DNA from: Neodothiora populina
Taxonomy: Eukaryota
Direction of reading: 5' to 3'
DNA length: 64,000 nucleotides
Assembly: GCF_041146345.1 (NCBI RefSeq)
Contig: NW_027191402.1
Span: forward strand, 992,001-1,056,000
Shown: piece after piece, positions 29,612-33,389 of the stretch
How positions within the stretch are numbered: the first letter of the stretch is position 1
Layout of the letters: each line of letters starts with the position of its first letter
The notes under the pieces: generated by a model
Database searches by the model: none
Told to the model about the DNA's origin: nothing
What the model saw: the letters and a program-made list of their open reading frames with translations, nothing else
Made by a program: the position numbers and the translations under genes

Positions 29612-30160
29612 GGAGGTAAAACAACAAGTGACGAGGCACATGAATCTGCATGACAGCAGGAGGAAAGTGTCATTATATATAAATGATTGTAAACATAATA
29701 CCGATATTCAATTCACAGTTTCTGATACCTCTGACAACATATTGATTGATATCGAGCGAATCACTAGATAACAGAATGGTGGGATTGTAATATAGAGCAA
29801 GGATGCCTGACGATGACAGGTCGGTCTAACCTCGGAGTTGGGTAGAAGTGATACGTCACGGCTAAGTGTTTTGTCAGGCAGCCACGAGGACCCCGCCACA
29901 GCTTAGGAAGGTACGAGAGTGGATTAGTTATTGTTACAACACAACTACTCTTATCCTCTTCTCATCATCTGACAAACCATCACCATCCTCATCCTCATCA
30001 GCTTCATCAAACCCACGCTCTCTCCACTGTCACTACTCCGTCGTCTGCCATCATCGTCATCATTCCCGTCCCATCGCCCAAGATTAGCTCTCCAAAGGTA
30101 GCCAAGCTGGGTAAAAGGCGACTCTCCGGCGACGAGCCGCCTACCGCGCACAAGAAAGTC

Positions 30161-33100
30161 ATGACAGTGAGTGATCTATAGACAATAACAGAGGAGATGG
30201 AATTTAATGACAGAAAAAGGACGCCAAGATGGACGTCGATAGCCCTGCCGCAGCTGTAGAACAGCTCAAGCAGGCACAGCAAGACAGCAACGGCGAGATC
30301 GATGAGTCTCTATACAGCAGACAACTGTACGTGCTGGGCCACGAGGCGATGAAACGCATGGGATCATCTAATATTCTTGTCGTTGGTCTGCGTGGTCTCG
30401 GTGTGGAAATCGCAAAGAACATCGCGCTGGCCGGAGTCAAGAGCCTGACGCTATTTGATCCCAAGCCTGCAGAGATTCAGGATCTCTCGTCACAATTCTT
30501 CCTTCACCCTGAAGATGTCGGCAAGGGTCGCGCCAGCGTCAGCGTGCCTCGTGTGTCTGAGCTAAACCCCTATGTTCCAGTCAAGGAGCACCCTTCTCCC
30601 AGCCTCATTTCGGACCTCTCCCAACTCAAGAACTACCAGTGCATCGTCTTGACCGACACCCCGCTCAAGGACCAGCTTACCATCTCCGACTACTGCCACC
30701 AGAACGGCATCTATGTTGTCATTGCCGACACTTTCGGCCTCTTCGGTCAGATCTTCAACGACTTTGGAAAGAACTTCGCCATCGCCGACGCCACGGGCGA
30801 GAACGTGCTGAGCGGCATTGTCGCCGACATCGACTCGGAGGGAATCGTGTCGGCACTGGACGAGACTAGACACGGATTGGAGGATGGCGATTATGTTACC
30901 TTCACCGAAGTCGAGGGAATGGAGGGCATCAACAACAGCACCCCTCGCAAGATCACCACAAAGGGCCCATACACTTTTTCCATCGGTGATGTTTCTGGTC
31001 TGGGTCAGTACAAGCGCGGAGGTCTGTACACGCAGGTCAAGATGCCCAAGATCATCGACTTCAAGCCCTGGAGCGAGCAGATCAAGAACCCCGAGCTGGT
31101 CATGTCCGACTTCGCCAAGTGGGACCGTCCCGCCCAGCTCCATGTCGGATTCCAGGCTCTTCACAAGTTCGCCGAGGCCCACGGCGGCAAGTTTCCCAAG
31201 GCACACAACGATACAGACGCCGCAGAGGTGCTCAAATACGCAGAAGAGATTGCCGGTGCTGGCGAAGAAAAGGTCGAGCTGGACGAGAAGCTCATCAAGG
31301 AGCTCAGTTACCAGGCTCGCGGTGATTTGAGTCCCATGGCTGCCTTTTTCGGTGGCCTGGCCGCTCAGGAAGTTCTAAAGTCTGTTTCGGGCAAGTTCAG
31401 TCCCGTCCACCAACTCATGTACTTTGACGCTCTCGAGGCTATCCCTACCTCGACAAAGCGTTCCGAAGAGCAATGCAAGGCCCTCGGTACCAGATACGAT
31501 GGACAAATCGCCGTCTTCGGAAAAGAATACCAGGACAAGCTCGCGAACCAGCGCCAGTTCCTTGTTGGTGCCGGTGCCATCGGTTGCGAAATGTTGAAGA
31601 ACTGGGCAATGATCGGTCTCGCCACTGGACCCCGAGGACAAATCACAGTCACCGACATGGACCAGATTGAGCGCAGTAACTTGAACAGACAGTTCCTCTT
31701 CAGACCCAAGGATGTCGGATCGCTCAAGTCTGAGAGTGCCTCCAAGGCTGTTCAGGCCATGAACCCTGATCTGAACGGCAAGATTGTTGTCATGAAGGAT
31801 CGCGTCGGTCAGGACACCGAGCATTTGTTCAACGAGGCCTTCTGGAACGACCTTGATGGCGTCACCAATGCCTTGGACAACGTCGATGCTCGTACCTATG
31901 TCGATCGCAGATGTGTCTTCTTCCACAAGCCTCTGCTCGACAGCGGTACCCTCGGTACCAAGGGTAACACGCAGGTCGTCTTGCCCAGAATCACCGAGTC
32001 TTACTCCAGCTCTCAAGATCCACCTGAGCAGTCGTTCCCCATGTGTACCCTTCGCTCTTTCCCCAACCGCATCGAGCACACCATCGCCTGGGCCAAGGAT
32101 CTATTTCACACTTTCTTCGCTGGTCCTGCCGAGATTGTCAATCAGTACTTGACAAATCCCGATTATCTGGGCGCAGCACTCAAGCAGTCCGGCAACGAGA
32201 AACAAACCCTCGAGACGCTCAAGGATTCACTTGTCGACGAGAAGCCGCAGACGTACGAGGACTGCATCAAGTGGGCACGCACGCAGTTTGAGAAGCAATA
32301 CAACAATGCTATCCAGCAATTACTATACAACTTCCCCAAGGATTCCAAGACCTCTTCGGGACAACCCTTCTGGTCTGGACCCAAGCGCGCGCCTGACCCA
32401 CTCCGCTTCGACACGAACAACCCGACTCACTTCACGTTTGTGCTCGCCGCCGCCAACCTTCACGCTTTCAACTACAACATTCCCCAGAAACAGCTCAAGG
32501 ACAAGAATGAGATTATCAGTGTGCTCGACAACATGATTGTGCCTGACTTCAAGCCAGACCCTGGTGTCAAGATTCAGGCCAACGACAGTGATCCGGACCC
32601 CAACAGTGCGTCGGGACCTACGGATGACGACAACGAGCTCGACAAGATCATCAAGTCTCTGCCGTCACCCAAACAACTGGGCGACTTCAGACTGACTCCG
32701 GTCGAGTTTGAAAAGGACGACGACACCAACTTCCACATCGACTTTATCACGGCCGCTAGTAATCTACGTGCGGAGAACTACAAGATCGCCATGGCCGATC
32801 GCCACAAGACCAAATTCATCGCTGGCAAGATTATTCCCGCCATTGCCACGACTACTGCCTTAGTCACTGGCCTGGTCATTATTGAGTTGTACAAGATTGT
32901 CGACGGCAAGGATGATATTGAGCAATACAAGAACGGCTTCGTGAACCTTGCATTGCCATTCTTTGGCTTTTCCGAGCCGATCGCTTCGCCCAAGGGAACA
33001 TACCAGGGCAAGAATGGCGAAGTCACCATCGACAAGTTATGGGATCGCTTTGAGGCGGAGAATGTCACTCTGAGTCAGTTCCTCAAGGACTTTGAGGACA

Positions 33101-33389
33101 AGGGATTGACCGTGACGATGATTTCGTCGGGTGTCAGTTTGCTTTATGCCAGCTTCTACCCGGCCAGCAAGAACAAGGGTAGATTGCCGTTGAAGTGAGT
33201 TTTTTCCTTCTCTTAACCCCCACGAACAAAGAACTGACACTACAACACAGGCTGTCCGAACTCGTCGAGACCATTTCCAAGAAACCCATTCCTTCGCATC
33301 AGAGCAATGTCATCTTCGAGATTACCGCAGAGGACACGACCGAGGAGGATGTCGAGATTCCATATGTCATGCTCAAGCTCAACAAGTAG
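30161..33389 (+). CDS. UBA1: Ubiquitin-activating enzyme E1
   Basis: [32 protein letters not shown], active-site PMCT and FEKDDD. Likely micro-exon ATGACA (30161-30166), intron 30167-30213 and last intron 33195-33250. Confidence 0.97.

Follow-up and report, generated by a model that had tools for sequence, protein, structure and literature searches.

A candidate CUG start and a conserved coding leader upstream of the annotated UBA1 start in Neodothiora populina and other Pezizomycotina

Where does translation of UBA1, the ubiquitin-activating enzyme (E1), begin in the Pezizomycotina, and could part of it start at a codon other than AUG? The question is raised by a stretch of 64,000 nucleotides (nt) from Neodothiora populina (contig NW_027191402.1, positions 992,001 to 1,056,000; hereafter the window, in whose own numbering all coordinates are given), which carries a UBA1-type E1 gene on its + strand. 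The public annotation starts this gene at ATG 30229, and another ATG stands at 30161. The first-pass annotation of the window had pointed out that the frame of ATG 30161 is open back to a stop at 29849 with no in-frame ATG and that this frame contains a CTG in strong context at 30107. All of its coordinates agree with the sequence. The nearest in-frame stop upstream of the CTG is TGA 29849-29851, no in-frame ATG lies between the two, and the CTG itself (30107-30109), which we propose as the initiation codon of a long UBA1 proteoform, is embedded in GCCAAG-CTG-G (30101-30110), with A 30104 at -3 and G 30110 at +4.

In our model, the UBA1 mRNA would be read from nested in-frame starts. Part of the scanning ribosomes would start at CUG 30107, whose context is the best possible one, and initiation there, together with removal of a 47-nt intron, would give a protein about 25 residues longer than annotated. 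The extra N terminus would carry two basic clusters at the spacing of a bipartite nuclear localization signal (NLS) and an RRxS serine. Ribosomes that pass the CUG would start at AUG 30161, or perhaps at AUG 30229, and produce a short form without the first basic cluster. One gene would thus provide a nuclear-directed E1 as well as the bulk ubiquitin E1 of the cytoplasm, in the way that mammalian UBA1 yields UBA1a and UBA1b from two AUGs. Initiation at the CUG, leaky scanning, and tag-driven nuclear import are what we infer from the comparisons described below, and the combined proposal of a CUG-started long UBA1 with a nuclear-directing tag appears probable to us.

A conserved near-cognate codon in initiation context

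When metagenome contigs were scanned with the first 224 residues, 80 loci were obtained, four of which (L037, L063, L070, and L073) were excluded because they lacked usable upstream sequence. Together with the window, 75 loci collapse to 65 distinct leaders (64 from metagenomes plus that of the window). The codon homologous to CTG 30107 is CTG in 46 of these leaders, TTG in 3, GTG in 2, ACG in 1, ATG in 6, GCT or GCC in 6, and TCC in 1; hence, 58 of the 65 have AUG or a codon one base from AUG at this site. None of the 65 has CTC, CTT, CTA, or TTA there. As a control, we considered four Leu positions that are invariant or nearly so in these sequences; there, CTG accounts for 64 of 215 codons (30%) and CTC, CTT, CTA, and TTA together for 134. 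It is therefore unlikely that the CTG is a mere internal Leu codon, since the site, unlike the control positions, is restricted to near-cognate codons. A quick maximum-likelihood tree of 61 of the leaders (4 were omitted because their translated piece is shorter than 150 residues) shows CTG across all clades and requires two changes to account for ATG, one for TTG, and one for GTG.

The surroundings of the codon are conserved as well. A is found at -3 in all 52 near-cognate leaders and G at +4 in 51 of them. Among the 43 leaders that align without insertion, 41 have G at -6, 41 have C at -4, all 43 have A at -3, 39 have A at -2, and all 43 have G at +4, with -5 being variable. Since -6 and -4 are kept while -5 varies, this would appear to be a nucleotide-level initiation context and not an amino-acid pattern. 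The onset of conservation is abrupt at -6 (GNC-AAR-CUG-G), with at most 0.56 bits at each position upstream of -6. Mean pairwise differences at codon positions 1, 2, and 3 amount to 0.70, 0.68, and 0.68 upstream of the context, 0.30, 0.33, and 0.58 in the first nine leader codons, and 0.12, 0.005, and 0.55 in an invariant peptide of the protein body. Judged by the alignment, a near-cognate codon in good context stands at the 5' edge of conservation, and the conservation pattern of a start codon followed by a coding leader is demonstrated. Both the near-cognate codon kept across Pezizomycotina leaders and the synonymous-biased divergence behind it, which the first-pass annotation had named as expectations, are thus borne out. 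What stands above chance in these comparisons is the conservation of the CTG, of its context, and of the peptide behind it, not the length of the open frame. The long frame back to 29849 is incidental, since the nearest in-frame stop in orthologues lies anywhere from 12 to 441 nt upstream of the homologous codon.

Conservation of this kind might also stem from a promoter motif, a motif of the untranslated region, or another DNA or RNA element that is not translated, and the nucleotide-level conservation from -6 to -1 would suit such an element. However, the divergence downstream is three-periodic and biased to synonymous sites, the UBA1 frame is kept in 22 intron-less orthologues, and changes at the site stay within the set of AUG and near-cognate codons instead of preserving a fixed motif. 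We consider an untranslated element extremely improbable on these grounds.

A weak context, with C at -3 and A at +4, surrounds the site in each of the six leaders that carry ATG there. In these leaders (L010-L012, L016, L020/L021, and L035), the start codon has been strengthened and the context weakened. A weak codon in a strong context in most leaders versus a strong codon in a weak context in these is the pattern to be expected if an intermediate start efficiency were selected. A start-enhancing hairpin downstream of the CUG is unsupported (z of -0.27 for the window and, with simple shuffles, a mean z of -0.55 over 52 orthologues).

AUG codons that could serve in place of the near-cognate are largely absent. 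For 45 of the 52 near-cognate leaders, the frame upstream of the site reaches a stop without passing an ATG, some of these stops being only 15 to 33 nt away; the others either have an in-frame upstream ATG (4 leaders) or run off the available sequence (3 leaders). From the start site to the next in-frame ATG, all 65 leaders are free of ATG in every frame. That next ATG belongs to a conserved "MT" codon pair (ATG ACA, 30161-30166 in the window, in the same frame as CTG 30107, the ATG being 30161-30163). In 59 of 65 leaders this MT codon follows the site at a distance of 51 to 60 nt, and its -3 position is a purine in 63 of 65. For the 47 leaders with at least 600 nt of upstream sequence, the median distance to the nearest upstream ATG in any frame is 244 nt, with about one ATG per 49 nt farther upstream.

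First intron, upstream starts, and breadth across fungi

The long form requires that the leader be connected to the body of UBA1. In the window, splicing out a 47-nt phase-0 intron (30167-30213, GTGAGT...ACAG) joins ...HKKVMT to KKDAKMDVD..., in frame with ATG 30229, and retention of the intron would lead to a stop at TAG 30179. Splicing is needed to reach the body in 36 of the 65 leaders, 33 of which have GT directly after the second codon (ATGACA), as in the window. In 22 of the 65 orthologues there is no intron, and leader, MT, and body form one open reading frame (ORF); the remaining 7 are in frame but long. One orthologue is represented both without and with its 139-nt first intron (L028, positions 1-260, and L030, positions 1131-1520). 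The two are 99% identical, and L028 lacks exactly 139 nt, which begin with GTAAGT after ATGACA, contain CTAAC, and end with AG. Splicing of intron 30167-30213, as foreseen for the long form, is thus supported by the retained GT, by the intron-less orthologues, and by this pair of sequences. A single sequencing run, probably of DNA, gave no joints and only two short contigs, both unspliced (30069-30229 and 30357-30600), and has no bearing on expression, on splicing, or on the transcription start site (TSS).

L028 has the appearance of an assembled transcript. Its first base is located 162 nt upstream of the CTG, this part is free of ATG, and an in-frame TGA stands at -33. If L028 is indeed a transcript, the TSS of that relative lies upstream of the CUG, and only a non-AUG codon is left to start the peptide. 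This bears on the possibility that an unannotated upstream exon carrying an AUG is spliced onto the leader, which would make non-AUG initiation unnecessary and which is in line with four gene models (P0037, P0097, P0112, and P0119) that place ATGs upstream. The upstream parts of these models, however, are not mutually conserved, and the CTG is not preceded by an invariant AG acceptor (18 of 43 leaders have A at -10, 26 have G at -9, and 27 have G at -1). Furthermore, ATG substitutes for CTG at the very same position in two lineages, and the spliced-form L028 is colinear with the genomic L030 for 162 ATG-free nt upstream. An upstream exon of this sort is therefore very improbable, whereas translation of the leader from a non-AUG codon at or near 30107 seems to us highly probable from the sequence comparisons.

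Which non-AUG codon is used deserves separate consideration. Upstream of the main site, 25 of the 65 leaders carry an ATT that is in frame and has A at -3; every one of the 7 leaders without a near-cognate at the site itself belongs to these 25. In the window, the possible additional start is ATT 30083-30085 (context cccaagATTagc, A at -3). At this position the closest relative, L001, reads ATC, directly after an in-frame TAG, and the two share A-A-R-AT[TC] at -24. In 18 leaders the ATT is located at -36 in a C-A-C-C context (C at -4 in 18 of 18 and A at -3 in 16 of 18), and the stretch from there to the CUG is three-periodic (0.77, 0.85, and 0.32 bits). Some of the lineages may hence have a second non-AUG start at an in-frame AUU, which in the window is that at 30083. 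Conceivably, the leader is translated with initiation mainly or also at AUU 30083, or at other upstream AUC or AUU codons, the CUG being an internal Leu or a second start, and the distribution, context, and periodicity of the ATT would all agree with this. In many leaders, however, an in-frame stop separates such a codon from the CUG (for instance at -15 in L006 and at -24 in L034 and L039), an internal Leu would not be limited to near-cognate codons, and the ATT position is weakly conserved in the full set (0.52 bits at -36). We regard this alternative as doubtful and continue to favor the CUG at 30107. L034 and L039 also have a GCCACG-ATT, resembling the upstream AUU start of other lineages, about 37 nt before the CTG, but it is not in frame and an in-frame stop comes after it; this lineage thus seems to have lost an upstream start and kept the CUG only. 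The window has more in-frame near-cognates upstream, namely, ATT 30062 and several ATC codons; only that at 30083 has a counterpart in L001.

How widely the leader occurs was assessed from predicted proteins. The best 120 protein database matches are all close relatives, the named ones being mostly Dothideomycetes. Among these 120, most start with MDVD or MQVD or with MT..., the MT start corresponding to ATG 30161. Twenty extend farther upstream and share K-L-G-K-R-R-L-S-G-E-E...K-K-[VI]-M-T, and in 7 of those 20 the sequence ahead of K-L-G is unrelated among proteins. In proteins of the Cladosporium, Zasmidium, Lecanosticta, and Zymoseptoria type, an annotated Met is found at or next to the Leu position (MTKRHLSE, MKRRAESP, and MKRKLSDS). 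L050, a locus of the GCY type, falls in with Chaetothyriales and further Eurotiomycetes, and here the leader is found in 17 of 101 new proteins, over-extended Aspergillus models reading FTIPTEIPVRDAAKLGKRRASAD...PEKKIMT. Likewise, L080 groups with Leotiomycetes (Drepanopeziza, ...GEGKLGKRKLSS...SKKIMA) and then with Sordariomycetes, with the leader present in 15 of 120 proteins; the Sordariomycete leaders include DALGKRKLSNGE...KRIMT in Metarhizium and GKRKLS in Claviceps. The leader thus occurs in Dothideo-, Eurotio-, Leotio-, and Sordariomycetes, the named genomes being known here from protein models alone. To look for the leader outside the Pezizomycotina, 1.84 billion representatives were searched by phmmer with P0037; among the best 150 matches none aligns to query residues below 48, which decides neither for nor against homology there. 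Unrelated N-terminal basic clusters are present in a few of the phmmer matches (P0353, P0379, P0421, P0438, and P0481).

A number of observations weigh against the proposal as a whole. One locus, L040, has upstream sequence but no recognizable leader within 420 nt. In 7 of the 65 leaders the site reads GCY or TCC and is no near-cognate; all 7 have the in-frame A-3 AUU upstream, which may be an additional or even the real start in some lineages. The binomial tail for the codon usage at the site, 4e-21, overstates its significance because the sequences are mutually related, and it is the contrast within the set that counts. L028 could alternatively be an intron-less allele, in which case it would show the exon junction and carry no TSS information. 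In the PDB, the Uba1 chain of budding yeast starts about 10 residues before the IDE motif and that of fission yeast about 2, so that the tag is not universal in fungi. To these points must be added the second basic cluster of the leader, which is taken up in the next section.

The leader as a candidate nuclear-targeting tag

The leader coding sequence of the window (30110-30160, GKRRLSGDEPPTAHKKV) contains KRR at 30113-30121, a Ser codon at 30125-30127, and KK at 30152-30157. The consensus of the leaders is [start]-G-K-R-[RK]-x-S-x-[DE]...P-x-K-[KR]-x-M-T. A spacer of 9 to 11 residues separates the basic clusters in 51 of 58 leaders, that of the window being 10, and a serine follows the first cluster in the form [KR][KR]x(1-2)S in 48 of 58. 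In a bipartite NLS, the second cluster has at least three basic residues in five, and the clusters are separated by about 10 to 12 residues. The first-pass annotation had read the leader as such a signal and had looked to orthologues for a conserved KRR..KK peptide. The peptide is indeed conserved, and the reading as a bipartite NLS stands as far as the spacing of the clusters is concerned. The second cluster agrees less well. In many leaders it is only KK or KR before x-M-T, while the window reads KKVMT|KK after splicing. Being often only KK, it falls below the three-in-five rule, which leaves the fit to a bipartite NLS incomplete and counts against a role in import; the NLS reading thus rests on the spacing and on the analogy with the human enzyme.

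In a PDB search with the intron-less leader of L006, the two human chains that retain their N terminus rank first. Residues 6 to 18 of human UBA1 are LSKKRRVSGPDPK, and the KKRRVSG at residues 8 to 14 matches the fungal GKRRLSG at the level of a motif. In mammalian UBA1 as in the fungal leader, the basic motif is located 41 to 47 residues before IDE..LYSRQ. UBA1a and UBA1b begin at Met1 and Met41, respectively, and the first 11 residues of UBA1a comprise the NLS and the serines required for phosphorylation (PMC4013028 and PMC4596250). The comparison with the vertebrate isoforms made at the outset is therefore sound. Given the spacing and the similarity to the UBA1a motif, we read the fungal leader as a putative nuclear-targeting tag, and we lean toward the view that it directs nuclear import, with less assurance than for its translation.

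Alternatively, the extension might be made from the CUG and serve phospho-regulated docking, stability, or tuning of UBA1 output instead of nuclear import. The weak second cluster would be in keeping with such a function, as would the RRxS or SxxE serine seen in 48 of 58 leaders. However, the conserved feature is the two-cluster architecture with its spacer of 9 to 11 residues, and in the sole characterized N-terminal extension of UBA1, the mammalian one, a similar KKRRVSG is an NLS. A function of this kind in place of import is, in our estimation, unlikely, and a nuclear-targeting tag remains our preferred reading of the leader.

Gene annotation, significance, and known systems

Downstream of the first intron, the UBA1 gene of the window consists of exon 2 (30214-33194, including the annotated start ATG 30229), a 56-nt intron (33195-33250, GTGAGT...ACAG), and a last exon (33251-33389) that ends with TAG 33387-33389, all on the + strand. 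Removal of the 56-nt intron gives 988+1+45 = 1034 codons from ATG 30229. This equals the length of P0001, a hypothetical protein of Neodothiora populina (1034 aa, start MDVD) to which the window protein from ATG 30229 is 100% identical. The translation from ATG 30229 contains five Pfam E1 domains above cut-offs (PF00899, PF16190, PF16191, PF10585, and PF09358). In the PDB, yeast and human UBA1 score 1162 to 1293 bits, UBA6 763 to 768 bits, and UBA7 about 703 bits; the gene is a UBA1 orthologue, nearer to Uba1 than to the paralogues UBA6 and UBA7. Neither the conserved first exon, two codons long and beginning at ATG 30161, nor the intron of 47 nt is part of the P0001 model. Considering its conservation, the MT ATG 30161 is probably the main AUG start, although it is not used by the public annotation of this genome, and the AUG-defined protein more likely has 1041 residues than the annotated 1034, with 1059 in the putative CUG form.

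Two further observations concern the annotation of this region. In the window, 29813-30160 is free of ATG in every frame, which covers 294 nt upstream of the CTG plus the part from the CTG to ATG 30161, and it includes a C/T-rich tract at about 29940-30080 that we take to be typical of fungal core promoters. Many deposited UBA1 models from Aspergillus, Penicillium, Claviceps, Hortaea, Metarhizium, and a number of Leotiomycetes are 1250 to 1778 residues long (P0182, P0203, P0205, P0208, P0214, P0215, P0219, P0168, P0174, P0210, P0277, P0225, P0231, P0068, and P0263) and fused to GST-, FKBP-, gamma-tubulin-complex-, or Exo5-type domains of the upstream gene. These fused models are likely caused by gene predictors that climb the open, ATG-free leader in search of an ATG.

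Full-text literature searches by topic and motif, paper supplements aside, returned no published report of a non-AUG extension of fungal UBA1. A 2013 study by Wei et al. (J Biol Chem 288:9549) reportedly mentions conserved near-cognate extensions in Neurospora crassa, among which UBA1 might figure. If our proposal is correct, UBA1 models in hundreds of fungal genomes need correction, given that most start at the MT or the MDVD ATG and some are fused upstream. ATG-based gene annotation would then have missed both a nonstandard CUG start and a tag resembling a nuclear address, and an essential housekeeping enzyme would join the short list of deeply conserved non-AUG proteoforms. Tractable fungi would also become available in which single-codon changes can be used to study the nuclear versus cytoplasmic roles of E1 and their coupling to translational stringency. 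UBA1 sits atop nearly all ubiquitin signaling, and the sharing of E1 between nucleus and cytoplasm is known only for mammals. There, loss of one UBA1 start-codon isoform causes VEXAS syndrome (PMC12380878).

It is possible, and we put this forward tentatively, that fungi and animals inherited a two-isoform E1 from their common ancestor, in which a downstream AUG gives the cytoplasmic form and the nuclear form bears an N-terminal phospho-NLS of the KRRxSG type. The Pezizomycotina would make the nuclear form via tandem AUU and CUG near-cognates in optimal context, and start-codon stringency (eIF1/eIF5, stress), not transcription or splicing, would set the ratio of nuclear to cytoplasmic enzyme. 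Where a lineage has gone over to AUG, the weakened context would be a compensation.

The proposed fungal arrangement resembles mammalian UBA1a/UBA1b in the orthologous enzyme, in the nested in-frame starts, and in the basic motif followed by Ser-Gly in the isoform-specific N terminus. It differs in that both mammalian starts are AUG (Met1 and Met41) whereas the fungal upstream start would be CUG, although 6 of the 65 leaders use ATG. The likeness between the two tags consists of a 7-residue motif and about 14 extra bits (ungapped HMMER) and does not imply common descent.

Non-AUG N-terminal extensions that give dual localization are an established kind (PMC7214817, PMC5487733, PMC7049704, and PMC6582344). 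In Ustilago maydis, a non-AUG start (AGG AUU) adds a peroxisomal PTS2 to Pgd1, which has been tested experimentally (Kremp et al. 2020, PMC7214817) and also provides experimental precedent for tandem near-cognate starts. As proposed for UBA1, a fungal housekeeping enzyme has a signal within its annotated 5' untranslated region, a conserved near-cognate, and, by leaky scanning, dual localization. However, the signal is peroxisomal, the codons are others, and the organism is a basidiomycete, whereas the putative UBA1 tag is of a nuclear type. In dual-localized fungal aminoacyl-tRNA synthetases, near-cognates in strong context (cccaccAUU) add a targeting peptide (Wallace et al. 2020, PMC7049704). 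Here, too, weak AUGs and near-cognates have repeatedly been swapped in evolution, but the signals are mitochondrial presequences, unlike the putative nuclear-type tag of UBA1. Finally, the cpc-1 gene of N. crassa produces N-terminal extensions from conserved near-cognates, with A at -3 and G at +4 being key and perfectly conserved at one near-cognate codon in Pezizomycotina (Ivanov et al. 2017, PMC5487733). It shares with UBA1 the conservation throughout the Pezizomycotina, the A-3/G+4 context, and a coding leader without AUG. The cpc-1 extension comprises about 180 residues and involves several near-cognates and an interplay with upstream ORFs, whereas that of UBA1 would be a tag-like extension of about 25 residues.

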